Shown here piece by piece: positions 6,719 to 61,922 of a stretch of 64,000 nucleotides of DNA (positions are counted from its first letter, which is position 1; each line of letters begins with the position of its first letter). The DNA is from an uncultured Candidatus Saccharibacteria bacterium (GTDB lineage: Bacteria > Patescibacteriota > Minisyncoccia > Phycocordibacterales > UBA6899): assembly GCA_964469335.1 (NCBI GenBank), contig CAYXYK010000004.1:101362-165361 (forward strand). The letters run 5' to 3'. The translations under genes were made by a program, and so were the position numbers. Below the pieces are notes generated by a model. That model had not been told where the DNA came from. It saw only the letters and a program-made list of their open reading frames with translations, and searched no databases.

Positions 6719-6732
6719 TGTTCGCCTGCAAG
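6719..6732. promoter_or_regulatory. SOS (Cheo-type) LexA box CGAACAACTGTTCG overlapping the lexA promoter
   Basis: This is a perfect GAAC-N4-GTTC palindrome 23 nt upstream of the lexA ATG. On the coding strand it lies adjacent to a TATACT -10 element. Confidence 0.7.
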
Positions 6733-13950: not shown

Positions 13951-15610
13951 CGACGCACAACACATTGTCCGCCTTGCTCGTTCGGAGCCCGAGCGCACCG
14001 TACTTTCAGCCGTGCATATTGCTCGTGTTTCCGAGCAAAACGAAACACACGAAGTATTCTCGAGCTTCGCGCTTTCGCGCGGTATACTCGGCAAATTCGT
14101 CACAGTCCTGCTGCTTCCGATGATCTTCATCTACCCGCTCGCGCCAGCGTATGCCGCCGACGAATCAACCGCTGCTTCCTCCACGCCGGAGCAAGTTCCT
14201 ACTGAGATCGCCGAGACTCCTCCCGTGACCGACTCACTCAGCTCGGATCTTGGCAGTGCACTCTCGGGTGCCGCTGCAGCGGTCGCTGATCTCTTCGTCG
14301 GAGGTGAGACATCCTCGACATCGGAAGAGATGGCGACTACCACTCCAGACACCCTCCCCGCCACCGATGACACTGCAACAACGTCAGAAGGCATGACTTT
14401 GCTTGACGACACTGCGTCCTCGACCGACAGCGGCTCTCTTGCAACGAGTACACCTTCGGATTCTGATGCGTCGACCACTCCGGCAATCCCGAGTGGAAGC
14501 AGTTCGAGCGATGAGTTCGCTTCAAGTACTTCCTCAGCATCCTCGACCGATGACATCCTCGACACTGCATCCTCCACCGAAGAATCAGTCACCCCGTCGA
14601 AGAGCGCACAGGAGATTGCGGCCGAGATGCTGCGCGAGAAAGAGGATTCGATGCGCGCGTCGATCAGAAAAGAAGTCGAAGATGAATTCACAAAAGGTTG
14701 TGTTTCGCTCGACACAACCGGCTATTACTGTCTCAAAGACAGACCGAACAGCGGAGAGAGTCTCACGCCGTCGAATGTCATCACAGATGTCACATCCCGG
14801 CCGGATGCATCGGGAGAGTGGAAGCAGATCTTCATTACGCGCGGAGGGATAGAGGAGCAACTGACACACTTCAGCTGGGACAATGCATTTCCAGCGACCG
14901 ATGTCTCCGGCAAGTCCGTCGTTTGGCAGGGGAACGTGAATGGTCGTTGGCAGATATTCTATGCGACCATCAGCGCGAGTGGAACTCCCTCGATAATGGA
15001 GGTCACACATTCGAACGAGAGTAATTTCAACCCTAAGGTCGACGGCGACGACGTTGTCTGGCAGGGATGGGTCGACGGCAACTGGGAGATATTCCTTGCA
15101 GAGCATCTCACTCCCGAAAACTATCTTGCTTCGACCACTTTACCGATCGAGAACAAACTGCTTGCCATTGATAACAGCTGGAAGGTCACCCGTGTCACGA
15201 CGAATTCGGGGCACGATATGTTCCCGTCTGTCGCTGGCGGGCTCACGACTTGGCAGTCATTCCAGGACAATGCATGGAATGTCTATGTCTACAGCATGAA
15301 GACCGGCACCACACAGAAGATCTCAAAAAGTGGCGAGAAGAGCGAGCAGCCGCGCTTCGCCATTACTTGGGATGAGCGGACCACCGAAGGGAACACCCGC
15401 ATGGTCGGCTACGACATTGCAAGCGGCAAGACCATCGACCTCACCGAAGAGGCACGCCGGGTCAATGATGATAAACCGTATACACCGACCGCTCCGATTA
15501 CCCAGCCGGACCAGGCCGCATTACCGATCAGTGGCTCCGGCACCAGCACTTCTGCAAAGAGTGAGGGGGACGCGAACGGCACCAGTACTCCTAACGGTTT
15601 GGATATATGA
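13940..15610 (+). CDS. membrane-anchored protein with acidic Ser/Thr/Asp-rich linker and C-terminal TolB-like beta-propeller repeats
   Basis: The start is the in-frame ATG (MRNNDAQ) overlapping the upstream stop by 11 nt. The protein has a TM (LLLPMIFIYPLAPAYA) and at least four repeats of D(G)..VVWQG.V.G.W.IF. Confidence 0.55.
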   Translation: MRNNDAQHIVRLARSEPERTVLSAVHIARVSEQNETHEVFSSFALSRGILGKFVTVLLLPMIFIYPLAPAYAADESTAASSTPEQVPTEIAETPPVTDSLSSDLGSALSGAAAAVADLFVGGETSSTSEEMATTTPDTLPATDDTATTSEGMTLLDDTASSTDSGSLATSTPSDSDASTTPAIPSGSSSSDEFASSTSSASSTDDILDTASSTEESVTPSKSAQEIAAEMLREKEDSMRASIRKEVEDEFTKGCVSLDTTGYYCLKDRPNSGESLTPSNVITDVTSRPDASGEWKQIFITRGGIEEQLTHFSWDNAFPATDVSGKSVVWQGNVNGRWQIFYATISASGTPSIMEVTHSNESNFNPKVDGDDVVWQGWVDGNWEIFLAEHLTPENYLASTTLPIENKLLAIDNSWKVTRVTTNSGHDMFPSVAGGLTTWQSFQDNAWNVYVYSMKTGTTQKISKSGEKSEQPRFAITWDERTTEGNTRMVGYDIASGKTIDLTEEARRVNDDKPYTPTAPITQPDQAALPISGSGTSTSAKSEGDANGTSTPNGLDI

Positions 15611-18600
15611 CGCGAATGAGTTTCAAGATCCTTAGGTTGATCGGAAAAAAAGTGGGAGTCGGCATGATCATGCTCTCGACCGTGTTCTACAGCTTCGGTG
15701 GGCTTGATCTCTATCTCGGGCTCACTACTCCGTTCGCCCCCAAGAAAGCAGACGCCGCATACACTGGCAAGCAGCTTCGTACCATAGAATACATTCTTGG
15801 AAATGGTAGCGAGAACACCGCGCGTGCCGCAGGGGTGCTTTCATATTTTGGCTCGGCAAATGCAACGACCAAAGCTGGTGCCGGACAAGAAGTCGTCATC
15901 ATCGAAGGCTCGGGCATCAGGGTCGTAAATGCGTATCTTGATGTTGCGTTCCAGATCACTGCATCGGCGAATCTCACAGGACTCGATCTGTTCTTTGATG
16001 CCTCGAGTTCAGCAATCACCGGTACCGACGTCCGCATCGATGAAGTCACCGCGAACACACCGTACATCGGATCAGGGTTGTCCGGCTATTTTCGTGGTAC
16101 ACATGAGGTTACCGCGTTCTTCGCAACAACGAGTGATGCGAATTGGAACGCAGGAGTCGGCGTTGTCGCCGCCGCGTCGACCACATTTTCCGCTGCCGCA
16201 AGCCGTGCGCTCACCACCATTAAACTTGTCATCACCTATGAAGAGGATGTATCCGCCGGTGCACACAGCGAAGTGAAGACCGTGCGCTTTCCGCTCGACT
16301 CGAACAATGGAACCGATACCGGCACCAGGCAAGCCGCATGTGGCGCCGGAACGACGTGCGGTTTCACCTACACGGCGGACATCCCTGACGCACTCGCCGA
16401 TGCCGACATCCTCGACGTTTATTTCGAGATCCACGGCATGGTCGACTCCGGTACGGCTTCGACACTGCAGCCGCAGATTTCAGGTGGGACGGCAGGACCC
16501 GCATATGCCTGGACCGAAGCGCGCGCCGATAACACCTCCGTGAACGTTACTTTTCGTCCGACAGTCGGAGCTCCGAATTTCACCCGCAACACCCCACAGA
16601 CGCTCAATATAGTGAATGGTACGGTCGCACTCGGTGCGCTCGGCGGAGAACTGGTCGTGACATACCGCTACTCGACCGGAGCGTCCGCTCAGACCGAGAC
16701 GGTGCGCTACTTTGTCGATCAGGATACGACCAACCCCGGCACTGCAACTTCGACGTTCGCGACAAGTACTGCGGCGATCGCGAATTCAGGTCGGTCGGTG
16801 AAGAGCATCTGGTATCGCGTACAGATCGCCCCGATCGCCGCAGCGAACATCAATATCGGCAGCGAAGTCGGGACTGCGACCAAGCGTTTCAAAACCTATG
16901 CGATCACCGGTACGAATCCGCGCTCGGGAGATTCGCCGACCATCATCCATGACCTGAGCGCGGATATCGGCAATTTCTGGAACACCTCCGTTGGACTCGG
17001 AGGGGAAACTCGTGCATCGGTCTCGAATGCCCCCGTAGGACTCGAAGCATATGTCACGTTCACCTGGGACGGCAACACCGCCTCGGATGTGACCAAGAGT
17101 GTCTCATTCAGCGGTGCACAGCAGGGTGTTTCCGCCGTGGCACAGCAATGGAACAACACCTCGGTGTTCATCGAGCTTCCCGAGACGGTCACGAAGACCT
17201 ATCGCAGTGCATATCTTTTGACCAACTACGATCATTCCAATGCCGGCACCATTACGGTGGGCACGGTCACCATCGGTGTGAACGGCTCGACGACCGCGAT
17301 CACCGAGAATGGTGATACTGAATCGTTCAACACGAGATACTATACGAAGATCGCCTCGACCACATTCTCGAATGGTGACCCGATCCTTTGGACTTCTCGC
17401 GCGATCGAGATCAATCAGCAGAAGAGTGTTGCCAACAGCGCCTATTTCGCGAATGAGGTGATCGTCACTTATGACGCTGCACTCGGCGGCAATGACATCA
17501 CGGTGACTCCGAAGCAGCTCCGTACTGTCGAATATGAGCTCGGCGGGGAGTCCGACAATGCGCAGCGTGCAAGCGGAGTGCGCTCGTATGTCGGCGCCGC
17601 ATGGTCGGCGAGCAAGGTTGGAGCGGGGACACGCTCGATCGTACTTAACGGCAGTAATATCAGGGTCGTCAACGCATATCTCGAATTCGGCTTCATTATC
17701 GCTTCCTCCTCTAACCTCACCGGCCTCGATGTCTACCTCGATGCAGGCGGTTCGTCGTCTGCGGGCACTGATGTCCCAGTCGCTGAGGCGGTCGGAGTAT
17801 CCATCCGTTCAACGACCGGACTCACCGGTTATGTCCGCGGCAATCATGATGTCACCGCGCTCTTCGATCGCCAAAGTGATGCACAGTGGTCATCCGGAGT
17901 CGCCGTCGTCGCATCAGCTTCGACCACACTCGCACTCGGCAATCGCACGCTCTCGACGATGCGCCTCATCATCACCTATGAGTCCGACTATTCGCTCGTT
18001 GCACACACCGAGACCAAGACCGTGCGTTTCCCGCTCGACTCGACCGCCGGTACCGACACCGGTACCAAGCAGACCGCATGTGCGATCTCAGCGGTCTGCG
18101 GATTCAGCTATACCGCGAACATCCCCGATGCGGCCGCGGACGCTGACATCCTCGATGTCTATTTCGATATGCATGCGGAAGTGAACTCCGCCGCCGCAGG
18201 ATCGTTCGATTTCCAGATCACCTCGATGCCGACCCCGAGTCAGGCATATGCCTGGGTTGAGACGAATACCGATGACAACACCGTCAATGTCATCTATCGC
18301 CCGGCGGTCAGTGGAACCGCATTCCAGCGCAACACCGCGCAGACGCTCAATATCAATAATGGACCGGTCGCCTTGAATGCGCTCGGCGGAGAACTGGTCG
18401 TGACATACCGCTACTCGACCGGCTCGACGGCGCAGACCGAGACGGTGCGCTATTTCGAGGATCAGCGTACGACCGCCCCGGGTACGACCCGTAACAATTT
18501 CGCCACCATCACCCCGACCATCTCGAACGGTTCGCTTTCGGTGAAGAACATCTGGTACAAGGTGCATGTCGCCCCTGTTGCCGCGACCAATATGACCATC

Positions 18601-20889
18601 TTCGGGAGGGTTGGTACCTCGACCGAAAAATCGAAAGTTTTCACCTTCGCCGCGACCAACCCGCGTGCAGGGGATACCCCGACGGTCATCTATGACATGA
18701 GCGCGGACATCGGGAACTTCTGGACCTCGACCACGACGCTTGCCGGCGCGGCTCAGTTCTCCGCCGCGAACTCCGGCACTCCTCCTGCGGTCGAAGCGTA
18801 CATCACCTATACGTGGAACGGTTCGCTCGGAGGTACCACCACGCGCACCGTACTCTACTCGGGAGCGCAGCAGGGAGTCACCAATCTCCTTGGTGCCTGG
18901 AACAACAAAGACATGCATGTCGAACTACCGGAAACGGTGACCAAGACATTCCGCAGTGCATATTTCGAGACGACGCACTTGCACTCGAATGCGGCGACCA
19001 CCATCACCATCAGTACGCTCACGTTCGCCGAGAACGGTGTCGCCTCGACGGTCGCCGAGAACGGTGATACCGAAGCGTACAATGCGGTGTATTTCAATCC
19101 GATCGCATCGTCGACATTCTCTTCGGGCGATACGATCAATTGGACGAAACGTTCGCTTGAGGTCAGCAATGCGCGAAACGTCGCGAACTATAGCTATTGG
19201 AACAACGTGCTCGTGGTCACCTACGACGCCGCTCAGGAGTACAAATTCCCGACCTTCACCCAGAATGCGTTCCGATTCTATGCTGACAATGCCGCGATCA
19301 AGCCGACCGATGCTTGGCCTTCCGGTGTGGTCGACCTCGGCGAGAACACCGAGATCACCGCTGCAGACTCACCGCCCGGCAACGGGAGCAACCTCAGGCT
19401 CCGCATGTCGCTCACTGTCGCGACCACCACCATGCTTGCGTCGTCGACCCAGTTCAAATTGCAATACGGCGTACGTACCAGTACCTGCGGAGCGGTCGCC
19501 TCATGGGCGGACCTTGGCGCGCCGGGCTCAGGGGCACAGTGGCGCGGGTTCAATGCGGCTCCGGCTGACGGCTCGAACATCTCCACGAGTTCACCGATGG
19601 CGGGAGAGCTCCTGCTCTCGGTCTCCGATCGTGCCGGTCTTTATCAGGAGTCGAACAACACGGTGTTCAATCCGTTCGCGACCGCGGTCGGAGAAGATGT
19701 CGAGTATGACTGGAACATCCAGAACAACAATGCCGCCACCGACACACCATATTGTTTCCGGATGACGAAGGTAGACGGAACGGCGTTCAATGATTACTCC
19801 GCATCGTATCCGACGGTGCGCACGGCGGGGTATACTGCCGAGTCGAAGAACTGGCGTTGGTACGATGACGAGAACAATGAGACCCCGACTTCGCCGATGG
19901 CGATCGAGAATACCGCTCCGACGAACGTCGTCACCGAGAATATCATCAAGCTGCGCGTGACGCTGAATGAGACGGGAGGTTCCAACGGCGTAAACCAGAA
20001 GTTCATGCTGCAGTACTCCGAGTGGGGAGACTTCTCAAGAGGGGTGACCGACCTTGTCGGCACGTCGACTTGTGTGACCAATGTTATCTGGTGCTACGGC
20101 GACGGTACCGACCTCGACGACAGCGCCATCTCGACCTTGCTGCTCTCTGATTCTGCGGCAAAGGGGAGACACAACGAGGCGGCGACCACGACGTCTACCT
20201 CAGGTCCGCTCGGTTCCACTGCGACCGAATACGAATTCACCATAAAGCATGCCGGCGCCCGGGTGAACACTACCTATTTCTTCCGATTGTGGGACGTGAA
20301 TCATGCTCGCCCGGTTCCGCTCGGGTCCGGCGAGAGCTATCCTTCGCTCTCCACTCAAGGTGCGACACTCTCATTCACCGTCTCGGGTCTTGCTTCGACC
20401 ACGGTTACGGGTGGAGTCACCACTGACGTCGACACCACCGCGTCGACGATACCGTTCGGAACGATACAAGTGGGCGGACCGGGTACGGTAGCGGCACAGC
20501 GCCTCACCGTTTCGACTGATGCGACCGAAGGATATCAAGTGTTCGTGCGCAGTAACGGCGACCTGGCAAATGCGCTCGCCGACGACATCCCTCCGGTCAC
20601 CGGCACCAACAGTGCTCCGTCCGCGTGGAGTGTCGGGTGTGACACTGCTGCCGACGGGTGCTACGGCTACCATGCCACGGACGGCACGCTCGCGGGAGGA
20701 TCGATCCGTTTCCTCGTCGATGACACATATGCACGTTTCTCCAGCACGACACTCGAAGAGGTCATGTACAACTCAGGACCGGTCACCGCCGACACCGCCG
20801 ACATCATCTGGAGACTCGAAGCGCACATCACCCAACCTGCGGGAGCGTATACGACCAGTGCACAATATATCGTTGTCCCCATCTTCTAA
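15607..20889 (+). CDS. giant (1760 aa) secreted surface protein with duplicated ~580-aa module and WxL-like C-terminal domain
   Basis: The gene has an ATGA start/stop overlap with the upstream gene. The protein has an N-terminal TM/signal and two tandem homologous modules. Its C-terminal region is homologous to modules of the 6224-aa protein and to the C-terminus of the 24009 gene (TFTVSG ... W ... IWRL ... YIVVPIF). Confidence 0.8.
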   Translation: MTRMSFKILRLIGKKVGVGMIMLSTVFYSFGGLDLYLGLTTPFAPKKADAAYTGKQLRTIEYILGNGSENTARAAGVLSYFGSANATTKAGAGQEVVIIEGSGIRVVNAYLDVAFQITASANLTGLDLFFDASSSAITGTDVRIDEVTANTPYIGSGLSGYFRGTHEVTAFFATTSDANWNAGVGVVAAASTTFSAAASRALTTIKLVITYEEDVSAGAHSEVKTVRFPLDSNNGTDTGTRQAACGAGTTCGFTYTADIPDALADADILDVYFEIHGMVDSGTASTLQPQISGGTAGPAYAWTEARADNTSVNVTFRPTVGAPNFTRNTPQTLNIVNGTVALGALGGELVVTYRYSTGASAQTETVRYFVDQDTTNPGTATSTFATSTAAIANSGRSVKSIWYRVQIAPIAAANINIGSEVGTATKRFKTYAITGTNPRSGDSPTIIHDLSADIGNFWNTSVGLGGETRASVSNAPVGLEAYVTFTWDGNTASDVTKSVSFSGAQQGVSAVAQQWNNTSVFIELPETVTKTYRSAYLLTNYDHSNAGTITVGTVTIGVNGSTTAITENGDTESFNTRYYTKIASTTFSNGDPILWTSRAIEINQQKSVANSAYFANEVIVTYDAALGGNDITVTPKQLRTVEYELGGESDNAQRASGVRSYVGAAWSASKVGAGTRSIVLNGSNIRVVNAYLEFGFIIASSSNLTGLDVYLDAGGSSSAGTDVPVAEAVGVSIRSTTGLTGYVRGNHDVTALFDRQSDAQWSSGVAVVASASTTLALGNRTLSTMRLIITYESDYSLVAHTETKTVRFPLDSTAGTDTGTKQTACAISAVCGFSYTANIPDAAADADILDVYFDMHAEVNSAAAGSFDFQITSMPTPSQAYAWVETNTDDNTVNVIYRPAVSGTAFQRNTAQTLNINNGPVALNALGGELVVTYRYSTGSTAQTETVRYFEDQRTTAPGTTRNNFATITPTISNGSLSVKNIWYKVHVAPVAATNMTIFGRVGTSTEKSKVFTFAATNPRAGDTPTVIYDMSADIGNFWTSTTTLAGAAQFSAANSGTPPAVEAYITYTWNGSLGGTTTRTVLYSGAQQGVTNLLGAWNNKDMHVELPETVTKTFRSAYFETTHLHSNAATTITISTLTFAENGVASTVAENGDTEAYNAVYFNPIASSTFSSGDTINWTKRSLEVSNARNVANYSYWNNVLVVTYDAAQEYKFPTFTQNAFRFYADNAAIKPTDAWPSGVVDLGENTEITAADSPPGNGSNLRLRMSLTVATTTMLASSTQFKLQYGVRTSTCGAVASWADLGAPGSGAQWRGFNAAPADGSNISTSSPMAGELLLSVSDRAGLYQESNNTVFNPFATAVGEDVEYDWNIQNNNAATDTPYCFRMTKVDGTAFNDYSASYPTVRTAGYTAESKNWRWYDDENNETPTSPMAIENTAPTNVVTENIIKLRVTLNETGGSNGVNQKFMLQYSEWGDFSRGVTDLVGTSTCVTNVIWCYGDGTDLDDSAISTLLLSDSAAKGRHNEAATTTSTSGPLGSTATEYEFTIKHAGARVNTTYFFRLWDVNHARPVPLGSGESYPSLSTQGATLSFTVSGLASTTVTGGVTTDVDTTASTIPFGTIQVGGPGTVAAQRLTVSTDATEGYQVFVRSNGDLANALADDIPPVTGTNSAPSAWSVGCDTAADGCYGYHATDGTLAGGSIRFLVDDTYARFSSTTLEEVMYNSGPVTADTADIIWRLEAHITQPAGAYTTSAQYIVVPIF
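15754..19245 (+). repeat. intragenic tandem duplication (2 x ~1.75 kb)
   Basis: Protein residues ~50-632 and ~633-1213 align collinearly (KQLRTIEY/KQLRTVEY ... GELVVTYRYSTG ... ETVRYF ... LPETVTKT.RSAY). Confidence 0.7.
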
Positions 20890-20897
20890 TCACCACC

Positions 20898-22145
20898 ATG
20901 ACATATAATAGAGAACAACTCATGAAACGCTTGAAGACGAGAGGACGTACTCGGTCCGTGCTTGCGGTGTGCGGCATGCTGCTCTTTACGTTGCCGAGTT
21001 TCGCTTTTGCCGCAAGCTCATTCACGGCTACTCCTGCGGTGATCGACGGCAAAGGGAAGGTGCGTGAGATCCTGCACTATAGTATGACCGTCGTGAATAC
21101 GACCAAGCATCTCGTGACTGTCTATCCGTGGGTCACCGACATCGATACTACCGAAGGGAATTCTGGTTCGAGCGATCTCGCCGGGACGCACGAAAAGGAA
21201 CTTTCGGAGTCACTCGCGCGCTGGATCGAAGTCACTCGCGGCTCGGTCGACCTGCTCCCCGGTGAGCAAAAAGACGTGCCAATCACCATCCAGATCAACC
21301 TCAATGCGAAGCCGGGGGTTTATCATTCCGCCATCCACCTCTCTGCGGGAGGTACACGTCCCGACGCAGAAGCGAACAAGGCCGATACGATGGACGTGCT
21401 TGTGAATATTGAAGTTCTCGATGATATCAACGAGCGACTGCAGCTCAACACCTTCGTTCCTTCGAAGGGGGTATTTGCCAACGAGACTGCTTCTTTCAAT
21501 TACCATATCGAGAACATCGGCAATCGCGGGGAGGTGCCGCACGGCAAGATACGCATCTACGACAAAAGCGGGCGTGAAGTTGCCTCCGTTGATGCCAATC
21601 AGGACGCAAAACGACTTGAGCCGTCATCGAAGTTGATGCTCTCCTCGGTCTGGGCATCAGGGAACAGTTTCGGCCGCTACAAGGCGATGCTCGATCTCGA
21701 GTATGGCGGCCGTGGCACACTCCAAGATACCGTATACTTCTGGGTCATTCCATGGAAGAAATTGCTTGGCATGTTCGTCTCACTCATCGTGCTGTGTGTC
21801 GCAGCCGCCATCGTACTGCACTCATACGGTCAGTCACGTCGCCGCGCACTCGCCGCCGAGACTTCAGAGGGTGGGTGGAGGCTTCCGTGGGGGCGCGATG
21901 AAAGTGAAGAAGAGGATGAAGAGTGGGAGGAAGTCGCCGTGCATCGCGCACGTGCAGTGAAGGAGCTCCGCGAAGTTGAACCTCCCCCTCCTGTCCATAC
22001 CCGTCTCCGCTCCGAGATCTACCACGGAGAGGAAGCTACGCATCTCTCGAATATGCCGAAAGCGGATTTATCCTCGCATAAGGTCATTCTCGGGAAGCGT
22101 GAATCACCGCCCCCGCCTCGGACGCATATCGTGAACCTCAAATAA
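20898..22145 (+). CDS. CscA-like (DUF916/DUF3324-like) cell-surface protein, C-terminal TM anchor
   Basis: The protein has a signal peptide, two beta-rich domains, a C-terminal TM (FWVIPWKKLLGMFVSLIVLCVAAAIVL) and a charged tail. An alternative start at 20922 is preceded by TATAATAGAG. The family assignment rests on architecture and motif resemblance only. Confidence 0.55.
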   Translation: MTYNREQLMKRLKTRGRTRSVLAVCGMLLFTLPSFAFAASSFTATPAVIDGKGKVREILHYSMTVVNTTKHLVTVYPWVTDIDTTEGNSGSSDLAGTHEKELSESLARWIEVTRGSVDLLPGEQKDVPITIQINLNAKPGVYHSAIHLSAGGTRPDAEANKADTMDVLVNIEVLDDINERLQLNTFVPSKGVFANETASFNYHIENIGNRGEVPHGKIRIYDKSGREVASVDANQDAKRLEPSSKLMLSSVWASGNSFGRYKAMLDLEYGGRGTLQDTVYFWVIPWKKLLGMFVSLIVLCVAAAIVLHSYGQSRRRALAAETSEGGWRLPWGRDESEEEDEEWEEVAVHRARAVKELREVEPPPPVHTRLRSEIYHGEEATHLSNMPKADLSSHKVILGKRESPPPPRTHIVNLK

Positions 22146-22146
22146 G

Positions 22147-23454
22147 ATGAAAAGATCCGGCCCACACCAATTCATGTTCATCCTGATCTCGCTTCTTGCG
22201 ATGGTACTTCCGTTTGGAGTCATTGCCGCAGACGAAAGCTCACTCACGATCACAGTCACACCGCCATTGTTCCAGGTTTCTCAGCCGGCCGGCACTGATT
22301 GGCGCAGTCAACTTCGACTGGTCAACAGCAACAATTATGATATTTCCATCACGGTGACTGCGCAGGATTTCCATCCGGACGGAGAGACAGGAAATGCGGT
22401 GTTTGAAGAAGGGGAGAAGGGGACCCCGACGGACTCTCGACGCATGTCCGGTTGGATCGAGGTGCCACCGGGGCTGCTCACGATTAAGCGCGGCAGTACC
22501 GCAGAGATCCCATTTACGATACACGTTCCACCGAATGCTGACCCGGGCGGACATTACGGCGGGCTTCTGGTCAGTACTCGTCCAGGCGACACTGGAGCTG
22601 GGAGTGGCGCTGGTATCTCATCAGGCATTACCTCGCTCATCTTCCTTCGTGTTCCTGGTGACGTGGTGGAAAAGGGAAGTATCAGAGATTTTTATACTGA
22701 AAACAGTGTGATCGAATCCCCTGATGCACGTTTTGTGCTGCGGTTCGAGAATGAAGGGAATGTGCACATTGTTCCACAGGGAGAGATCGTCATCACCAAT
22801 ATGTGGGGGAAGGTCCGCGGCAAGGTAAGCATCAACGAGAGTAGTACCTTCGGCAATGTACTACCGGAGTCAACCAGAAAATTCGAGTTCAACTGGAAAG
22901 AGCTCGACCCGAGCCCATTGGAAGTCGGCCGCTATAAGGCCATTGCGACCATCGTCTATGGGGTTGAGGGTCGACAAACCGTGGAGCGCACAGTCTTTTT
23001 TTGGATCGTACCGTGGAAGCCAGTCGCCTCCATCCTCGGATCACTGTTCTTCTTCATTTGGTTCATTTCCTGGTCGCTCCGACGTTATATCAAGAAGGCG
23101 CTCATGATGGAGCGTGTCCGACTTGGGATGACTGAACAGGAATTTGTCGCATATCGTGGCGGGCCGAAACAGGAAAAGCCTCAGCAGCCTACCTTGACCT
23201 TTTCCGCACTCAAACAACCACTCCGTGCAGCATCACTCAACCTTTCGCAAGACCGGATGACCTCATCACCGTCAGTATCAACACAAAAAAGAAAGAAATT
23301 GAAACCCGGAGTTGTCGCAAAGTTGCGCGCGTATCGCCCGCTGATCATCTTCGTGCTCGTACTAGCAACAGGGATCTCACTCATCAGTTGGTATTTCGTA
23401 GAGGTGTTTCAGGATGAAAGGGCCTACCACGTCGAGCAGATCCGCCCGCGTTAG
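22147..23454 (+). CDS. CscA-like (DUF916/DUF3324-like) cell-surface protein paralog
   Basis: The architecture matches the 20898 gene (FFWIVPWKP + TM + basic tail), and the start is 1 nt after the upstream stop. Confidence 0.55.
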   Translation: MKRSGPHQFMFILISLLAMVLPFGVIAADESSLTITVTPPLFQVSQPAGTDWRSQLRLVNSNNYDISITVTAQDFHPDGETGNAVFEEGEKGTPTDSRRMSGWIEVPPGLLTIKRGSTAEIPFTIHVPPNADPGGHYGGLLVSTRPGDTGAGSGAGISSGITSLIFLRVPGDVVEKGSIRDFYTENSVIESPDARFVLRFENEGNVHIVPQGEIVITNMWGKVRGKVSINESSTFGNVLPESTRKFEFNWKELDPSPLEVGRYKAIATIVYGVEGRQTVERTVFFWIVPWKPVASILGSLFFFIWFISWSLRRYIKKALMMERVRLGMTEQEFVAYRGGPKQEKPQQPTLTFSALKQPLRAASLNLSQDRMTSSPSVSTQKRKKLKPGVVAKLRAYRPLIIFVLVLATGISLISWYFVEVFQDERAYHVEQIRPR

Positions 23455-23577
23455 AACTTTCAGAAATGGGAACCTTCTACTTGCAGGACCCCCCAGTGAT
23501 TCGGTCAACGTACTATGAGTACGTCTTCCTCATCACTTTCCCCGCGCCTTGAATTTTCCTCATTTCTGAAAGTTCTC
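23453..23577 (+). repeat. structured intergenic element, copy B (terminal inverted repeat + conserved core GTCAACGTACTATGAGTACGTCTTCCTCAT)
   Basis: The 18-nt arms AGAACTTTCAGAAATGgg / CTCATTTCTGAAAGTTCT flank a core that is near-identical to 33299..33328. The inner stem gtgat/atcac covaries with atgcaat/attgcat in copy A. Confidence 0.45.
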
Positions 23578-23703
23578 TTTGTAAATATTTAGAGTTGATG
23601 CTTACTCTGTGCGCCACGAACTTTGCTCAGTTTCGCAGCTTCTATACACGTTGATGACGCCTCAAATTTCATCTATATATAGAGTGATAAAAGTAGGCGA
23701 AAC

Positions 23704-23770
23704 TGTGGATAAGTAGAGCCATATTCTTGGTTATCCACCTCTATTTGGCTCTTATCCACAGTTATCCACT
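23704..23770. promoter_or_regulatory. cluster of four DnaA-box-like 9-mers
   Basis: The boxes are TGTGGATAA (23704-12, inverted), TTATCCACC (23731-39), TTATCCACA (23752-60) and TTATCCACT (23762-70). Two are perfect matches to TTATCCACA and two differ by one base. An AT-rich tract lies upstream and a TATAAT at 23809 downstream. Confidence 0.45.
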
Positions 23771-24008
23771 TTGGGCGCACCATTTTCCCACAGCTAAGAT
23801 ATAATGTTTGATAGGTGCGAAGACCATCAACTCTGCGAGTATCGATGATCAGATCACCATCAGGACAATCATCCCAATTGTTGTCAGAATCAAAATAGAT
23901 TTTCCATTGTATACGCTCTCGCCTTGCCCCACACGGCGAAAGCACTGAAGATTACTTGTCGTTTAATATTCAGTCTCTCACAGCCATTATTTGTTTTAGC
24001 TTAGTTCT

Positions 24009-25166
24009 ATGAACTATCTTAGTTCTTTCAAACAGCTTTCACGCGCGAAGCAGATTGCTGTGCTGCTCATTGTGAGCACGTTTACATGGGCTGTCGGAGT
24101 TCCAACATTTTTTGCTACCGCTTCTGCGGCGCAACTCTCGCTCGTTAGTGCGACCGCATCGTCGTCTGTCCCTGCAGCAGTCACCAACATGACACTGCGC
24201 TACACCTCGACTACTACAGTTTCGACAGGTCAGACTATCGCGATCCAGTTCAGTCCTGGCCATAATGGTGGCACTGACGAATACAGTCTCGCATCCCTCA
24301 CCGTCAACGATGTTGTCGGACAGGCGGGTGTGACGGTCATTACCGCAGCTTGTGGTGCAGTCACCGCTAACCAGGTCTCAATCTCTGGTGGTATCGCCAA
24401 CGCTGCCGGAAACCGAACCGTCACCCTTACTGCATGTGGTGCAGTCGCTGCGCAGCAGATCACCATCGGATTCATCAACAATCATCTCGTCAATCCGACC
24501 ACGACCGGTTCATACAAGATCACCATCGGCGGCACTCAGACTGACTCAGGAACCGCAATGACCGCCATCCTCAACCAGGTCACCGTCACTGCTTCAGTCG
24601 ACACAACCCTTACCTTCACTGTTTCGGGTGTCGCAGCAGGTCAAAGCATCAACAACGAGCAAGTTTCGACAACTTCGACCGCAGTTGCGATCGGATTCGG
24701 CACACTCGCTTCGGGTACCCCGGTCGTCGCCGCACAGGACCTCACCGTGGCAACAAATGCGCAGAATGGATTCATCGTTACTGTACATGAGGACCAGAAT
24801 CTCCTCTCGGCGAACGGTGCTGATATCGACCTCTTCCAAGACGGAAATGCCGTTGCGACACCGATCGCTTGGGCGACTCCGACAGCAGTGCTTGGAACAG
24901 AAGCTACATATGGCCATATGGGTATCACTAGTAACGACACTGACCTCAATGCCAACGAGTTCTTCTCAGGATCGGTCATCAAATGGGCAGGTAATTTCTA
25001 CCCGACCACCACTCGTACCATCTTCTCAAATACCGGTCCGGCTGATGGTGTAACTCAGAATATCGGTAGAGCACGTGTCGGTTATAAGATCCTCGTCTCC
25101 AACCTCCAGGAAGCCGCAACGGATTATACCAACCACCTCATCTACGTTTGCACCCCGACATTCTAA
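24009..25166 (+). CDS. secreted surface protein with WxL-like C-terminal domain (paralog of the giant-protein C-termini)
   Basis: The protein has a signal/TM, an Ala/Thr-rich beta domain, and a C-terminal ~170 aa (TLTFTVSGVAAG ... PIAW ... VIKW ... YVCTPTF) homologous to the C-terminus of the 1760-aa protein. Confidence 0.6.
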   Translation: MNYLSSFKQLSRAKQIAVLLIVSTFTWAVGVPTFFATASAAQLSLVSATASSSVPAAVTNMTLRYTSTTTVSTGQTIAIQFSPGHNGGTDEYSLASLTVNDVVGQAGVTVITAACGAVTANQVSISGGIANAAGNRTVTLTACGAVAAQQITIGFINNHLVNPTTTGSYKITIGGTQTDSGTAMTAILNQVTVTASVDTTLTFTVSGVAAGQSINNEQVSTTSTAVAIGFGTLASGTPVVAAQDLTVATNAQNGFIVTVHEDQNLLSANGADIDLFQDGNAVATPIAWATPTAVLGTEATYGHMGITSNDTDLNANEFFSGSVIKWAGNFYPTTTRTIFSNTGPADGVTQNIGRARVGYKILVSNLQEAATDYTNHLIYVCTPTF

Positions 25167-25196
25167 ACCACTCTTTGTCCAGATGGTGTCGCATGA

Positions 25197-25224
25197 ACAG
25201 CCCCCGCTCGGGGGCTGTTTTCTT
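25197..25224 (+). terminator. Rho-independent terminator
   Basis: The sequence is ACAGCCCCCgctcGGGGGCTGTtttctt. Confidence 0.7.
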
Positions 25225-25466
25225 ACACAACGCACAGAATTGCTGTCTTTTTCTTCGGCTTTGGACGTGGATCCAATCATCGTGGCGAACCACTTCATAT
25301 GAGAACCACAACCTCGCAGACTTAAATCCTGGCCATTTCTGAGCGTTCTATCTACATAAATGAGGATAGGAGAGCTTTCCAAGTAGGGTATCTCGGATAT
25401 AATTAGGAGGATTAACCTTTATTATTTGCCCTCCTACTTTTCCGTACGAATGAGTAGTCATTATTT

Positions 25467-26525
25467 ATGCAACCTTACAAAAAATTCTTAGCCTTCACCG
25501 TACTCTTCGCAGCGCTCCTCGTTGCGCTTCCATCCGAAGTGAGTGCGCAAGGGAAAGTGAGCTTCAGGCTTTCCCCGACCACCATCGAAGACAAGGTGGA
25601 CCCGGGAGCTGACCGAGATTTCGCGCTCAATATCGAGAATCAAGGCGATGCGACCGCAACACTCTACCCGTCGGCGCAGAACATCACCGGAATCGGTCCT
25701 GACCTTCACCCGATATATTCCTCTGCAAAGGATACAGAAGGATACGCACTTGCGTCGTGGATCACCTATCAAGAGAAAGAGCTTGTTGTTCGTCCTCATG
25801 AACAAAAGACCCTCCACTTCACCGTTCATTTCCCAAAGGATGCTCATCCGGGATCGCATATGGCCGGTGTGTTTTTGAGTGACAAACCTTCAGATGCCAC
25901 CCAGAGCGGATCATCAATCGGCTTCCAGATCGGAGCGATAGTGAATTTCCAGGTCGCAGGGGAGATCATTGAGGATACTCAGATCAGAGAGTTTTACACG
26001 ACAAAGGCGGTGTACAGCAATGCGGATGTGGGATTCACCACTAAGCTTGAGAACAGGGGCAATATCCTGTCTCGCCCGCACGGCCTTATCGACATCACCA
26101 ACATGTTCGGAAAGAAAGTCGCTTCCATTCCGGTAAATGACAATGGCGGCGGTATCTTCCCGAACGGTGTGCGTGAGTTCTCGAGTGTATGGAAGTCCGA
26201 CGATATCCAGCTTGGACGCTATGATGCCGTCGTTGCGCTTGCAGTCGAAGGACAGAATGGAACTCAGACGATCTCGCGTGTACTTCAGTTCTGGATCATG
26301 CCGATGAACATCATTGGACCTATCGTCGGAGGTCTGCTTTTTCTCATCATCCTTGTCTACGTCATCATCAGGCTCTACATCAGGAGTCAGCTCGCCGGAA
26401 TTTCCCGTCCGCGTGGTGCGTCACGCCGCTCTGATCCAGGACTATCGAAGAGTGCTGCGATCGTGATAGCACTGCTTGTCGCGATCATCATCGGATTCGT
26501 TATTTTATTCTTTTACTTCGGGTAA
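25467..26525 (+). CDS. CscA-like (DUF916/DUF3324-like) cell-surface protein paralog
   Basis: The protein has a signal peptide, two beta domains, QFWIMPMNIIGP + TM and a basic tail. It aligns collinearly with the 20898, 22147 and 60879 proteins. Confidence 0.55.
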   Translation: MQPYKKFLAFTVLFAALLVALPSEVSAQGKVSFRLSPTTIEDKVDPGADRDFALNIENQGDATATLYPSAQNITGIGPDLHPIYSSAKDTEGYALASWITYQEKELVVRPHEQKTLHFTVHFPKDAHPGSHMAGVFLSDKPSDATQSGSSIGFQIGAIVNFQVAGEIIEDTQIREFYTTKAVYSNADVGFTTKLENRGNILSRPHGLIDITNMFGKKVASIPVNDNGGGIFPNGVREFSSVWKSDDIQLGRYDAVVALAVEGQNGTQTISRVLQFWIMPMNIIGPIVGGLLFLIILVYVIIRLYIRSQLAGISRPRGASRRSDPGLSKSAAIVIALLVAIIIGFVILFFYFG

Positions 26526-26706: not shown

Positions 26707-27648
26707 ATGGAAGACCGTGTCGTTCTCCGTCCAACGCGCATCACGTCGAAGCATGTAGGACATCATAATCTTACCCCGAGCGGAGAACCTCCGCGCAGGA
26801 AAAAAAGGAGAAAGAGTAAACTCCTACAAGGTGCATTCATTACTGTTGGAGCGATGGCGATGACGGTACTTATCATACATGCCAGTGACTCGTTCAAGAA
26901 CCCGAACGATCTTGTTGCGGGAGTCGGAGGAGTAGCCGCACCGTCCGCACGTTGTCCGAGCGACATGGTATTCGTTTCCAGCCCAAACGGGGGATTTTGT
27001 ATCGACAAGTATGAGAACTCACCAGGGAAGTCGTGTCCGCACAGTGATCCGAAGAATCAATTCGAAACCAATGACAACATGTCGCAACCACTCTGTGTAT
27101 CGGTCTCTGTTCCTGAGTCCGACCCATGGGTAAATATCCCCGTCACGCAGGCGATGGAGATCTGCACAAGGGGAGGTAAGCACTTGGCGAGCAACGGCGA
27201 ATGGTACCGCGCCGCACTTGGTACTCCTGATACCGTCAACACGGAAATCGGAAGCCCGAATTGCGTACTCGGTCGCATCGGCGTGAGTCATGGAGAGAAG
27301 ACGGGGAGTCATAGTGCATGCGTTTCTTCTGTTGGGGCTTTCGACATGGTCGGGAATGTCTGGGAATGGGTCGACGGAAACATTGTGAACGGTATATACG
27401 AGAAACGCGATCTTCCGCGCGAAGGGTTCATTACGGAGACAGACGTCGATGGTGTCCCAGTGTCTGTTGCAAGTTCTTCTTCCGAAGTATTTCACGGTGA
27501 TTATTTCTATATCAAGCGGGACGGGGTCAGCGGAATGCTTCGCGGCGGATTCTGGAATCTCTCGGAAAAAGCTGGGGTAGCGACGGTGAATGCGACCATC
27601 CCGACGACGTTCGTTGGTAGTGCTGTCGGCTTCCGTTGCGCCAAATAA
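26707..27648 (+). CDS. membrane-anchored FGE-sulfatase (SUMF1/EgtB/PvdO-like) domain protein
   Basis: A basic N-terminal tail and one TM precede FGE-type motifs (GEWYRAALG, DMVGNVWEWVDG, LRGGFW, VGFRCAK). Confidence 0.75.
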   Translation: MEDRVVLRPTRITSKHVGHHNLTPSGEPPRRKKRRKSKLLQGAFITVGAMAMTVLIIHASDSFKNPNDLVAGVGGVAAPSARCPSDMVFVSSPNGGFCIDKYENSPGKSCPHSDPKNQFETNDNMSQPLCVSVSVPESDPWVNIPVTQAMEICTRGGKHLASNGEWYRAALGTPDTVNTEIGSPNCVLGRIGVSHGEKTGSHSACVSSVGAFDMVGNVWEWVDGNIVNGIYEKRDLPREGFITETDVDGVPVSVASSSSEVFHGDYFYIKRDGVSGMLRGGFWNLSEKAGVATVNATIPTTFVGSAVGFRCAK

Positions 27649-27750: not shown

Positions 27751-28194
27751 ATGGCAGATACAACTCCGACAGCACCCGTATATCGATTCCGTTATGCGAC
27801 GCTGATTATTGCGATCGTGATTTTCGGGCAGTTACAGTTGCCACACGTTTCCTTTTCGCAGATGGCAAGTTCCGCATATCAGAATCTTGCGAACGTCTCC
27901 TCGATCAATGCAGCGGTTCCACCGAACGAATACAATACGCTTGCGCAGCAATTTTCTGAAAAAGACCGTGAACTCACCGCTCGAGAGCAGGAGCTGATTG
28001 CACGAGAAAAGGCGCTCGATGCGAAGTATCAGGAAGAGATCGCGAGCACCAAACGTACGACACTGCTGACCATTCTTGGTGCGACAGTCATACTGATACT
28101 TCTGATTTTGGCGAATTTCTATTTTGATATCAAGCGGGAAGAGGAACGTGAGCGGGTGCTCAGGGCCGAACGAGGCGAATCTTCTCCCCTATGA
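27751..28194 (+). CDS. hypothetical bitopic coiled-coil membrane protein
   Basis: The protein has an N-terminal TM, a Glu/Arg-rich coiled coil, a second TM and a basic/acidic tail. Its stop overlaps the next start (ATGA). Confidence 0.45.
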   Translation: MADTTPTAPVYRFRYATLIIAIVIFGQLQLPHVSFSQMASSAYQNLANVSSINAAVPPNEYNTLAQQFSEKDRELTAREQELIAREKALDAKYQEEIASTKRTTLLTILGATVILILLILANFYFDIKREEERERVLRAERGESSPL

Positions 28195-58658: not shown

Positions 58659-58854
58659 GCTGCTGAAGATCCTGAATATTCGTACCGGCACCTTTGCACT
58701 GAGAGTCTCACTGCAACTCGCATGATACCCATTCACTCAAGAGGGGCGAGCATCGGGGCATATTTTTAAGATATTGTGGATAAATAGTAGGAAAACTGTG
58801 TATAACTATTGCGCTTTCGGTGGATAAGGCGTGTATAATGTATCTACGTTCGCA

Positions 58855-60727
58855 TATGATGTTCCGAGAAAACCACAGCACGACAGGCGGGAAGGTGAGT
58901 ATTCTCACTGCTATTTTAGCGGTGCTCATTTTGCTCATCGGTGTGATGGGAGAGCTCCCACATGGTAAGGTCGCCCGCGCATCGACAGCGACCACCTCGG
59001 TCACGGTGCTCAATACTCCTCCGCAGTGGGACACCAACGTCTACGTTCAGGAGGCAAACCCCGTCGGGACCACTTCATCAGCAACAAGCACTTCACCGAC
59101 CAACGCGGGGAATACGCTGACTTGGTACGCAACCTCTACTGACTCATCCGGTGACAACTACTATATCCTTCTTTGCGATAACTTCGCGTCGCCGACCCCG
59201 AACTCAAGTGCACCACCCACCTGCGGTGCAGGCTCAGGGCACCAGATCGCTGTGTCAGCTGCTACGCAGAGTGGAACAGCCGCTACACTTTCAACGACAA
59301 CGGTATCTTGGATGCCCGAAGTCTACACCTACTACGCATATCTCTGTGACGGGAATGCGACAGGTCCTTCATGTAATCCGCAGGCATTCTCACCTTCGAG
59401 TAACCCGTTTCCTACCGTTGCGACTTCAAGCCCGAATCTCTCGCCGTTCATCGTCAATCATCGACCGACATTCACGGCGTACCTCAATACCTCACCCATC
59501 AATCCGGGTGGTACGGTAAGTTGGTATGCGACTGCGACCGATGCGGATACGTACGCATATGGAGCATATTCTTCAGATCGCGTGATGCTGTTTATCTGTA
59601 AACTCGCAGACTTCACCGGTACGGCCTGTGGAGGCGGGGGGACTTGGGCGACCTCAACTTTCGTGACCAACTTCGCCACTGGCACTCTCACCATTGGCAC
59701 TCCGTACCCGAAGGGTTCGTTTCCTGCCTACGGTTATGTCATCGACTATCATGGAGGTTTCGCCGCATCAGGTGGTCAACAGGGCGTCAGTGCACCGCTT
59801 GTCGTGAACAATGTCGCTCCTTCTATTGCTGCAGCATCGATCAGTCTGTTCAGTGCGACAGGTACGTCACCGCTTGTTCTGACCAATCTTGCGACACAGA
59901 CCCAAAACTTCTCTGTACAGTTCACTGTCACCGACCAGAATAGCTGCATGACATCGGTCGGTGGACCTGAGATCACCAATTCAATCATCAATGTCTATCG
60001 TTCCGGTGTAGCGTCAACGTCATGCTTCACTGGCTCACACTACAATGCGAATAATTGCTACACGGCAGCTACAGGTACGAGAGCGTGGAATTACTCGTGC
60101 TCTCCGGGGTCATGTACAGGCACATCTTCCGCGACCCAAGTGTGGACATGTTCATTCCCGCTCTGGTTCATCGCTGATGCGACTGATGCAGGATCACAGT
60201 TCCCGACAAACAATTGGCTTGCGACAGCTTCCTCATCTGACAGTTCCTTCGCTTCATCTTCGTTAGTCGAGTCGTCAGTAGGTACAGAGTTGCTGCAGTT
60301 CCTGGGATACGACATCTCAAGCACGACCATTGCTTATGGTGGCTTGCAGCCAGGTAACTCAGCCGACCTCCTCGCCTCCACAAGTGTCGCACTGCTTGCA
60401 CAAGGGAATGTCGGTCTCGATGAGAGTCTGTTCGGTGATGATATGTGTCCGACATATCCGACATGTACCGGTAATGCCACCTCGACGATCTTCGTAGCGA
60501 ACCAGAAGTATTACCATGCTCCCATTTCATATGCTTTAGCGACGTCTACTCTCTCAGGCGTTCCGACGACATACGGTGTTCGAGTGCCGAAAACCGTTGC
60601 AACGACTTCGATTCAGTCAAAAACCACCTACTGGGGTATCCAGGTTCCTGGAACGATCACTCTCTCCGGTAGTTATATCGGAAGGAACACGATACTCGGT
60701 GTCACCTCACTAGCTTCGTCCTGGTAA
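58855..60727 (+). CDS. secreted Cys-rich surface protein, paralog of the C-terminal region of the 6224-aa protein (WxL-like end)
   Basis: The ATG at 58855 lies 15 nt after TATAAT; the ORF-track start at 58820 is GTG. The protein has a TM/signal, a Cys-rich domain collinear with giant-protein residues ~5980-6130 and a C-terminus YWGIQVPG ... LASSW. Confidence 0.6.
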
Positions 60728-60878: not shown

Positions 60879-61922
60879 ATGAAGAAGGGGATACTTTTTG
60901 TCTTAGGAACGCTCCTCGTTTGGGGAGGTTTAACGAATGTTGCATTCGCAGGCTTTGGTATTACCCCTCCATATGTACGCAACGAGACACTTAGACAAGG
61001 TTCAGAATATACACAGGAGATCATCATAGTTCGAAGTGACCCAGTGGAGGACCTTAACGCCGAGCTGACCTATTCTCTCCCCGGCTATGAGTCGTGGTTC
61101 TCATCGGATCGCGGCACGAAGTTCATTCTTCCAAAAGGTGAATCACAAGTGAAATTGCACATCACCGTGCGCGTCCCTGACGACGCGAAACTTGGTGCAT
61201 ACAACGGCAACATCCGTATCCGCACATATTCATCGGAAAACGCCTCGAGCGGAGTCTCACTCGCACTGGGAGCACAGATCGATGTACACCTCAAGGTCGT
61301 CGATGAGGTGTTCGATTTCCAGGTTCGTCGCGTCGAACTTGCCGAAGCCGAAGAAGGCTACAAGAAATGGTGGCTGTCATTCCCGGGCAAAGTGAAATTC
61401 GCCATCTATCTCGAGAATACTGGCAATGTGCCCGCGGCCCCGTACAAAGTGGTGCTCTCTGTCTATGATGTGACCGGCACACAACTACTCGAGACGACGG
61501 AGAATACCAATCGGATCGACACGATACTCCCGTTCGATACGAAAAAAGTATACGCATACATCCCAACATGGCTTCCCCCCGGTAGCTATTCTGTGAAGTA
61601 CGATATCAAGAAGACCGAGACCGAGTCCGCACAGACCGGGCAACTTTCGCTTTCCGTCCTTCCGCGCGGAACGATCACTGGCTACGAGCAATATGGGTTC
61701 GAAGGATTGAAGCTCGCTGATCAACTCTCGCTTATAATTCCCGTTGCGATCCTTCTCCTTTCGGTGGTGACCGTCATCATCGTGAAGAAATCGAAACGAA
61801 AGAAGCGATCACGGCGCACTGATAGCGAAGACGAGCCACCGCGAAGACAAAGCAGGGAAGTGTCCCCACCCCCGCGACGAGCGGTCTCAAGCGGTGTCGT
61901 CGATCTTTCTCGTAAACGCTAA
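60879..61922 (+). CDS. CscA-like (DUF916/DUF3324-like) cell-surface protein paralog
   Basis: The protein has a signal peptide, two beta domains, a C-terminal TM (LSLIIPVAILLLSVVTVIIV) and a KKSKRKKRSRR tail. An extended -10 TGtTACAAT lies upstream. Confidence 0.55.
   Translation: MKKGILFVLGTLLVWGGLTNVAFAGFGITPPYVRNETLRQGSEYTQEIIIVRSDPVEDLNAELTYSLPGYESWFSSDRGTKFILPKGESQVKLHITVRVPDDAKLGAYNGNIRIRTYSSENASSGVSLALGAQIDVHLKVVDEVFDFQVRRVELAEAEEGYKKWWLSFPGKVKFAIYLENTGNVPAAPYKVVLSVYDVTGTQLLETTENTNRIDTILPFDTKKVYAYIPTWLPPGSYSVKYDIKKTETESAQTGQLSLSVLPRGTITGYEQYGFEGLKLADQLSLIIPVAILLLSVVTVIIVKKSKRKKRSRRTDSEDEPPRRQSREVSPPPRRAVSSGVVDLSRKR

Follow-up and report, generated by a model that had tools for sequence, protein, structure and literature searches.

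In the window analysed here, a stretch of 64,000 nucleotides from an uncultured Candidatus Saccharibacteria bacterium (contig CAYXYK010000004.1, positions 101,362 to 165,361), four genes, which we call A, B, C and D, encode exported, membrane-anchored proteins. Our results support the view that these proteins are divergent homologues of the WxLIP/CscA proteins of Gram-positive bacteria, an assignment that is firm as regards the DUF916 domain and the architecture as a whole and unproven for DUF3324. Each of these genes is preceded by one encoding a secreted protein, the tail domain of which recurs in a large or giant protein; thus, the four proteins, referred to below as docks, probably hold those proteins on the surface. 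On balance, we favour the reading that A to D are Patescibacterial WxLIP homologues, probably from a relative of Ca. Lloydbacteria, which dock the secreted proteins encoded upstream of them via two kinds of C-terminal domain, class I and class II. Such an anchoring or receptor role is plausible, and we infer a physical interaction, its mode and the choice of partner by each paralogue from gene order and from the analogy with WxLIP.

Four paralogous membrane-anchored proteins

The preliminary description of this DNA had proposed a fourfold paralogous family with genes starting at 20898, 22147, 25467 and 60879, and all four open reading frames (ORFs) are present on the plus strand:

20898..22145, plus strand: paralogue A, 415 amino acids (aa), WxLIP-like, with an alternative start possible at M9
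22147..23454, plus strand: paralogue B, 435 aa, WxLIP-like
25467..26525, plus strand: paralogue C, 352 aa, of the paralogues the closest to canonical WxLIP
60879..61922, plus strand: paralogue D, 347 aa, a distant superfamily member with its own large family

The fourfold paralogy holds as three close members and one distant one. BLASTP aligned A with B at 25% identity over 315 aa (E 1e-24), B with C at 29% over 309 aa (E 9e-45) and A with C at 26% over 307 aa (E 4e-26), and these alignments extend from the signal peptide through both beta domains to the transmembrane (TM) helix. D was aligned with C at 22% identity over 250 aa (E 1e-8) and with B over only about 100 aa (E 5e-5). It belongs to a family of at least 738 clusters that is separate from the A/B/C family, and comparison of the two family profiles with hhalign gave a probability of 98.9% (E 2e-17, 241 columns), with 97.6% (E 4e-12) for domain 1 and E 3e-7 for domain 2. 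Since the D-family profile is significant both as a whole and domain by domain, the fourfold paralogy is real. The preliminary description had also asked whether the four might align only through low-complexity regions; the similarity runs through the structured beta domains, and a low-complexity artefact as the source of the A/B/C similarity was ruled out, because the alignments cross beta domains modelled with a predicted local distance difference test score (pLDDT) above 90.

The layout that had been claimed for all four proteins is common to them in its main parts, namely a signal peptide, a beta domain of about 135 aa, a second of about 115 aa and a TM helix, whereas the motifs and the tails are not universal. 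A signal peptide and a C-terminal TM helix were found in all four by hydropathy and in the AlphaFold2 (AF2) model. The P.G.[YH] motif occurs as PGVYHSA in A, PGGHYGG in B and PGSHMAG in C, but D has LGAYNGN; likewise, FW[IV][IVM]P[WM] is present in A, B and C and replaced by LSVLPR in D. An EN.GN motif that the preliminary description lacks is invariant in all four and opens domain 2. The single TM helix with a basic tail that had been assigned to every copy is true of D only, which has a shorter domain 1, one TM helix (284-302) and a basic tail of 45 aa. In A, the helix (289-307) is followed by a cytoplasmic, net-acidic, Pro-rich tail of 108 aa, and in B the TM helix spans 293-311 and another hydrophobic helix follows close to the C-terminus (about 397-420). 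C consists of a DUF916-like domain 1 (about 30-165), domain 2 (about 166-279), TM1 (280-304), a basic loop and TM2 (329-351), and this second helix is kept in C orthologues.

Homology to WxLIP/CscA and spread of the family

The description of the proteins as CscA-like was borne out by Pfam matches, by profile comparison with both PDB and Firmicutes sequences, and by structure. PF06030 (WxLIP_PGBD, that is, DUF916) was matched by 26 of 28 aligned family members at E<=0.1, with a best E of 6.3e-8. The window copies stay below its gathering score of 27.3 (C 24.4 bits, E 3.2e-5; B 15.9 bits; A 15.6 bits), and D has no Pfam match to PF06030. The pilus chaperone families PF00345 and PF02753 have no Pfam match in any of the 28 members. 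When the family profile was compared with PDB sequences, EfmWxLIP1 (9i25_C, 9i1y_A) was the sole significant match, at E about 1e-5.

A Firmicutes WxLIP profile was built from eight proteins annotated as "DUF916 and DUF3324" with WxL neighbours, taken from Enterococcus, Listeria, Lactococcus, Lactiplantibacillus and Levilactobacillus plasmids. The family from the Candidate Phyla Radiation (CPR) matched this profile in hhalign with a probability of 98.3% (E 1.6e-14, 242 columns), the negative controls giving E 0.39-0.77, and domain 1 alone reached 97.9% (E 5.9e-13). Among the 493 window ORFs, the Firmicutes WxLIP hidden Markov model (HMM) picked out C (E 5.8e-11) and B (E 1.6e-3). D gave E 0.012 against the Firmicutes profile and is tied to WxLIP only through the CPR A/B/C family.

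The AF2 model of C (mean pLDDT 83.6) contains two beta sandwiches (about 33-163 and 171-277), the TM helix and the second C-terminal helix. Its top Foldseek matches in the PDB were the Enterococcus faecium WxLIP structures 9i25_C and 9i1y (E 1e-12), which cover both domains over about 260 columns (262 for 9i25_C). Thus, the structure prediction that had been proposed as a check on tandem immunoglobulin (Ig)-like folds returned two tandem beta sandwiches with WxLIP as the best match.

Clusters of WxL and WxLIP (Csc) genes are considered a specialisation of Bacilli that colonise gut or plant surfaces. The family described here is large: an exhaustive HMM search with the family profile recovered 16,001 cluster representatives (50% identity) at E<=1e-3, 8,251 at E<=1e-10 and 2,022 at E<=1e-30, and this family of about 16,000 clusters includes Patescibacterial relatives. 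The close homologues are all metagenomic, and the named ones belong to Candidatus Giovannonibacteria or Lloydbacteria. A scan of GTDB species genomes gave 26 loci, of which the named ones are nearly all Patescibacteria and a few are labelled "bacterium" or carry other bin names; the taxa are Lloydbacteria (closest, 51-64% identity), Sungbacteria, Paceibacteria, Saccharibacteria/Saccharimonadales and Gottesmanbacteria. In the literature that we searched, no paper links DUF916 or WxL to Patescibacteria or CPR, and more than 91% of WxL proteins are found in Firmicutes (PMC9772566).

Secreted proteins with a class I domain beside A, B and C

The candidate partners of A, B and C are a very long and a short secreted protein encoded directly upstream of these docks:

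15607..20889, plus strand: 1760-aa protein, the long partner candidate, directly upstream of A and B
20365-20886, plus strand: class I domain of the 1760-aa protein (residues 1587-1760), C-terminal end ...YTTSAQYIVVPIF
24009..25166, plus strand: 385-aa protein with signal peptide, N-terminal Ig-like domain and class I C-terminal beta domain, directly upstream of C
24606-25163, plus strand: class I domain of the 385-aa protein (residues about 200-385), C-terminal end ...DYTNHLIYVCTPTF
25195..25227, plus strand: intrinsic terminator hairpin and T-tract, read from the sequence, 30 nt after the stop of the 385-aa gene

The C-terminal domains of the two proteins are 31% identical (E 3e-10), and the class I HMM matches the 1760-aa protein at E 2e-49; therefore, one short and one very long secreted protein carry a common domain. 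The family of the 385-aa protein comprises at least 403 homologue clusters with 45-88% identity, none of which has a Pfam domain.

We counted gene adjacency by HMM search in the six-frame ORFs of the window and of 31 CPR loci from Lloydbacteria, Sungbacteria, Paceibacteria, Saccharibacteria and Gottesmanbacteria, three of which are essentially the strain of the window. Upstream sequence was available for 47 WxLIP-like ORFs: 36 of them are immediately 3' of a class I gene, 8 follow another WxLIP-like gene in such a unit and 3 do neither, so that 44/47 stand in a class I unit. The 385-aa gene is also directly upstream of the C orthologues, and A orthologues occupy the equivalent position in L004, L015, L016, L019 and L020. 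Four Lloydbacteria loci (L015, L016, L019 and L020) repeat the layout of the window exactly, in the order large protein, two docks, 385-aa protein, dock, FGE-sulfatase genes, dockerin/Big protein, HSP20, cohesin protein and giant, and the order "large, dock, small, dock" is also found in the Saccharimonadales genome L025.

Within the window, the 1760-aa gene, A and B follow closely on one another, with starts 9 nt (A) and 2 nt (B) past the preceding stop. The hairpin behind the 385-aa gene has a GC-rich stem of 9-11 bp and a folding energy of -21.2 kcal/mol (z -4.8), which none of 200 shuffled sequences reached in RNA folding; a consensus terminator scan did not pick it up. A promoter-like site for C lies at 25376-25403, with 10/12 positions matching. 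The strong terminator together with this separate promoter-like site suggests that the 385-aa protein is abundant and dock C less so.

On reading its translation, we found an internal tandem duplication of about 590 aa in the 1760-aa protein, with KQLRTIEYILGNGSENTARAAGVLSYFG near residue 55 and KQLRTVEYELGGESDNAQRASGVRSYVG near residue 635. In the Lloydbacteria-type loci L017, L018 and L020, one C-type dock is preceded by a tandem array of two or three paralogues of the 385-aa protein, as might be expected if a major surface subunit existed in antigenic or functional variants. The dockerin/Big protein encoded at 29191-30903 has, in its first 200 aa or so, a region related to the N-terminal Ig-like domain of the 385-aa protein (hmmsearch E 2e-10 in the window), and the same relation (E 1e-5 to 2e-17) was found in most of the other CPR loci in which the downstream region is present.

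Relation of the class I domain to WxL

The neighbours of the docks had been called WxL-like in the preliminary description. What stands of this claim is a set of collinear hhalign matches that are below significance and above 78 controls; no Pfam or HMM match to WxL was obtained, and no WxL chain is among the top Foldseek matches. Pfam and NCBIfam searches at E up to 10 returned no family for the C-termini of the 385-aa, 1760-aa, 635-aa and giant proteins or for those of ten Saccharibacterial class I proteins. Likewise, the profile of the 385-aa family matched nothing among the PDB sequences at E<=10, and the 635-aa and 1760-aa proteins had no match there.

A broadened class I profile was compared with the WxL profiles by hhalign. 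The global mode gave meaningless end-only alignments; the local mode gave weak, collinear matches exactly at both WxL motif regions, with P 0.017 and 0.1 against large WxL and 0.034 and 0.39 against small WxL, at a probability of only 1.5-2.7%. The top scores (21.9 and 20.1) and the collinear sums (39.0 and 33.1) all exceed every one of the controls, which were 16 natural beta-domain decoys (maximum 17.1), 2 reversed alignments (maximum 11.6) and 60 column shuffles (maximum 16.5). At both positions of the WxL tryptophans, the CPR class I consensus has Tyr or Phe (G[FY].V and Y[IV]..), so the paired Trp-x-Leu motifs expected of a WxL C-terminal domain are missing from class I; the 1760-aa protein contains one WRL. 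Researchers have defined WxL clusters by at least two WxL-domain proteins within 4 genes (PMC10599100). No such cluster was found in the window or the 31 CPR loci, where the equivalent positions are taken by two neighbours with a common class I domain.

The AF2 model of the 385-aa protein (pLDDT 85.8) resembles generic two-domain Ig adhesins, TasA and BslA in Foldseek searches of the PDB, and this bears on the main rival of docking, a role in fibre assembly, which we consider unlikely. In that case, the WxLIP-like proteins would be membrane-tethered PapD-type chaperones that donate a strand to the 385-aa protein as major subunit, which would then polymerise by donor-strand exchange into a fibre or sheath with the 1760-aa protein or the giant as tip or adhesin. 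The second-tier Foldseek matches of the C model are indeed the chaperones CfaA, CsuC, FimC and Caf1M (E 1e-10 to 1e-7), and the 385-aa model recalls the TasA fibre (8aur), the CfaE tip adhesin and BslA-like Ig domains. Moreover, a strong terminator of its own and large intergenic regions on either side make the 385-aa gene resemble a major-subunit gene; it occurs in the tandem copies described above, and its family is both large and highly conserved. However, the fibre matches of the 385-aa model are weak (TM-scores 0.2-0.3), the C model scores no better against the chaperones than against WxLIP, and polymerisation of partners is not known from WxLIP, which by sequence is the nearest relative. 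There is also no usher-like or sortase gene in the scanned parts of the window.

Candidate class II partners of D

For D, the preferred docking reading involves a different pair of secreted proteins:

58820..60727, plus strand: 635-aa secreted protein, directly upstream of D
59924-60724, plus strand: class II domain of the 635-aa protein (residues 369-635), with the motif YWGIQVP...G.NT
33634-52308, plus strand: gene of the 6224-aa giant, with a class II C-terminal domain at nt 51616..52299 and DUF2341 domains

The class II C-terminal domain measures about 260 aa, is 32% identical between the 635-aa protein and the giant (E 3e-13) and has the motif YWG[IL].VP...G.NT. The class II HMM matches the giant at E 7e-91 and the gene upstream of the D orthologue in 6/6 loci. 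No similarity of class II to class I, WxL or WxLIP was found by hhalign (E 0.31-0.99), and no related entry in Pfam or the PDB; it looks like a second, previously undescribed "address" domain. The preliminary description had regarded the docks as anchors or receptors for the giant proteins. This is consistent with the gene adjacency and with the two pairs of short and giant proteins that have a domain in common, but class II places the giant with D, and class I places A, B and C with the 1760-aa and 385-aa proteins. The giant as a class I carrier, and hence as a ligand of A, B or C, was rejected; it has no class I domain.

Upstream of the 635-aa gene and D lie genes for an ABC ATPase (54954-56306) and a MacB_PCD/FtsX permease (57450-58658), the two being separated in the window by a YdjM gene and by an uncharacterised ORF on the minus strand. 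Such transporter genes precede the pair of the roughly 620-aa gene and D in 6/6 loci, adjoining it in some and separated from it by 1-2 unrelated genes in others. This constancy invites an explanation that would concern D only, namely that it is not a static anchor but an accessory or substrate-side part of the MacB-type ABC transporter, which might, for example, pass the 635-aa protein or the giant on to the exporter or take it over from there. We think this very unlikely, because the homologous A, B and C have no neighbouring transporter of that kind, and because 1-2 unrelated genes (NUDIX, YdjM, Mrr, DUF2726 or uncharacterised ORFs) intervene in the window, L040, L041, L042 and L044. In addition, no MacB system is known to use a DUF916-like partner.

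Proposed docking mechanism

In the mechanism that we propose, a signal peptide would export each of the docks and be removed, leaving a type I membrane protein whose C-terminal helix keeps it in the cytoplasmic membrane, with the positive charges after TM1 on the inside and two tandem Ig-like beta-sandwich domains outside the cell. The membrane-proximal, DUF916-like domain would then bind the C-terminal address domain non-covalently by beta-strand complementation, in analogy to the complex of WxLIP and WxL. A, B and C may serve class I (the 1760-aa and 385-aa proteins) and D class II (the 635-aa protein and the giant), and this binding would retain both short and very long proteins at the cell surface. 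For WxLIP, the DUF916 domain is described as unstable alone, and a long hairpin is predicted to become the beta-strand which completes the WxL sandwich (PMC10599100). A complex of WxLIP with a long WxL protein is deposited as 9i25. DUF916 and WxL have also been reported to co-purify and to stabilise each other.

Several results weigh against this reading. On the side of the docks, the Foldseek TM-scores of the C model to WxLIP are low (0.38/0.48), and the chaperones of chaperone-usher systems are only about 100-fold worse in E-value. The HMMER check against DUF916 and DUF3324 that had been suggested came out positively for the former, as described above, and for the latter PF11797 (WxLIP_HBD, that is, DUF3324) was matched by only 1/28 members, at E 0.047. 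Domain 2 reached E 0.0045 and a probability of 7.7% against DUF3324 in hhalign, which is no better than CPR domain 1 against domain 2. Only domain 1 is therefore significant by sequence, and the assignment of domain 2 rests on fold and architecture. Furthermore, the WxLIP motif NQIDKxxxYFDLK falls opposite an 11-column gap in the CPR profile, with only "IEe" aligned to "Fdl" (hhalign), and B and C have a second TM helix that is not found in canonical WxLIPs. On the side of the partners, neither the window nor the 31 CPR loci contain a match to PF13731 (WxL), the Firmicutes WxL HMMs (small, large and combined) match none of the 493 window ORFs and 1,863 CPR-locus ORFs, and the WxL chain of 9i25 is outside the Foldseek top 50 for the 385-aa model. 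Lastly, D is linked to the giant only via the domain of the 635-aa protein and lies 8.5 kb from the giant gene.

The doubt about domain 2 also speaks for another explanation, in which A to D would themselves bind host or cell-wall polymers through Ig domains of the CARDB or NPCBM-associated type, and their adjacency to the secreted proteins would be mere co-regulation in a surface-protein island. Family members do have weak Pfam matches to fn3_5, NPCBM_assoc, CARDB and DUF11, and the window is dense in surface proteins with cohesin, dockerin, Big and fn3 domains and in giants. Nevertheless, we regard such an adhesin role as quite unlikely, since the gene-by-gene pairing is kept (44/47 and 6/6) across CPR classes that otherwise have little synteny in common, the short and long proteins with a common C-terminal domain mirror WxL clusters, and domain 1 is specifically DUF916-like.

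Beyond the proposed docking by A to D in this window, Patescibacteria may possess a widespread non-covalent display system of their own, with A/B/C-type and D-type docks that each recognise a dedicated address domain (class I being related to WxL but Trp-less, and class II being new), hold giants of several thousand residues and possibly assemble fibres by strand complementation. This wider proposal is tentative, and we hold it to be possible rather than probable.

The surrounding surface-protein island

An ORF at 13805-15610 overlaps the start of the 1760-aa gene by 4 nt and encodes beta-propeller repeats (TIGR04275, E 2.6e-16) after a low-complexity region rich in Ser, Thr and Asp. It is probably in the same operon as the 1760-aa gene, and its true start is likely to be downstream of the listed TTG. 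C is followed by two genes for FGE-sulfatase-domain (PF03781) proteins and one for a 147-aa membrane or coiled-coil protein (26707-27648, 27751-28194 and 28191-29114), and the distant CPR loci L001 and L002 have an equivalent set, with 2-4 FGE-like genes, downstream of their C orthologue. This suggests that the FGE-like genes are functionally linked to the docks, perhaps by modifying surface proteins.

Genes for cohesin (PF00963) and dockerin (PF00404) proteins, and an HSP20 gene that lies between them, are located at 29191-30903, 31225-31731, 31747-33261 and 61922-63124. These cohesin, dockerin and HSP20 genes are syntenic with both dock modules across CPR genomes, and cohesin-dockerin is a second type of non-covalent surface assembly in the same island. 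Upstream of the island, a LexA-like S24 peptidase and a DinB/IMS polymerase are encoded as a pair on the minus strand (4839-6897). Since L001 and L002 likewise have Peptidase_S24 and IMS genes upstream of their dock module, the synteny reaches beyond the surface genes.

Comparison with known systems

The WxLIP/CscA proteins (PF06030, PF11797 and a TM helix; Lactobacillales, Listeria and Bacillales) are like A to D in having a signal peptide, two Ig-like sandwiches, a juxtamembrane aromatic motif, a C-terminal TM helix and a length of about 340-430 aa. Domain 1 is homologous (97.9%, E 6e-13), the CPR strand "P..A.PG.H..G" matches "P.....G.llGG" of WxLIP, and WxLIP is the best PDB match of the CPR family by both sequence and fold. 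In both systems, the gene adjoins one short and one long secreted protein with a common C-terminal domain; this small-plus-large arrangement defines the WxL clusters of Firmicutes (PMC10599100, PMC9772566), and we observed it in the Firmicutes loci L007, L008, L010 and L013. However, the CPR proteins have only about 18% identity to WxLIP and the window copies stay under the Pfam gathering score; the NQIDKxxxYFDLK segment (PMC10599100) is deleted, and domain 2 is not significantly DUF3324 and has the invariant EN.GN instead. B and C also differ by their second TM helix and A by its long acidic tail, the partners are without recognisable WxL motifs, and the host phylum is Patescibacteria rather than Firmicutes. 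Unlike in Csc clusters, no LPXTG (CscD-like) gene was seen in the window cluster.

Like the WxL domain (PF13731; CscB/CscC), class I is C-terminal, beta-rich and about 190 aa long, and is found in short and very long proteins beside a WxLIP-like gene. In the alignment, its "...TNA.nGY.VtV..." stands opposite "r....gW.l.V" of WxL, and its "...AG.YT..l.Y[IV]..P" opposite "a..Y.ttLtW.L...P". The differences are that Tyr or Phe takes the place of the tryptophans in class I, which has no Pfam or HMM match, and that class II (YWG[IL].VP) has no similarity to WxL at all.

The PapD/FimC/CfaA/CsuC chaperones have the same two-domain Ig-like fold as C, for which they are the second-best Foldseek group (E 1e-10 to 1e-7), and their mode of action is like the predicted WxLIP mechanism, in that a strand complements an incomplete Ig-like partner. 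They differ in that there is no sequence similarity and that the CPR proteins are membrane-anchored, whereas the chaperones are soluble in the periplasm. Chaperone-usher systems are also diderm and need an outer-membrane usher, and no usher-like gene was present among the window proteins scanned.

CPR bacteria live as obligate epibionts and carry giant proteins on their surface. Our work offers a concrete, testable hypothesis for how these giants are anchored, namely which dock binds which tail domain. It also yields two new candidate anchoring domains with which thousands of CPR proteins now listed as "hypothetical" could be annotated. If it is true, the Patescibacterial display system would be a direct handle on the host-attachment apparatus of ultrasmall episymbionts. 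The sampled CPR loci keep the gene logic of one dock, one short and one long protein, and their partner domains lost the WxL motifs or never had them. The homology itself extends a known family: what is known is the WxLIP family, and what is new is its Patescibacterial branch of WxLIP-like docks: their partner domains are Trp-less or new, some of them have extra TM helices, and their clients run to several thousand residues.

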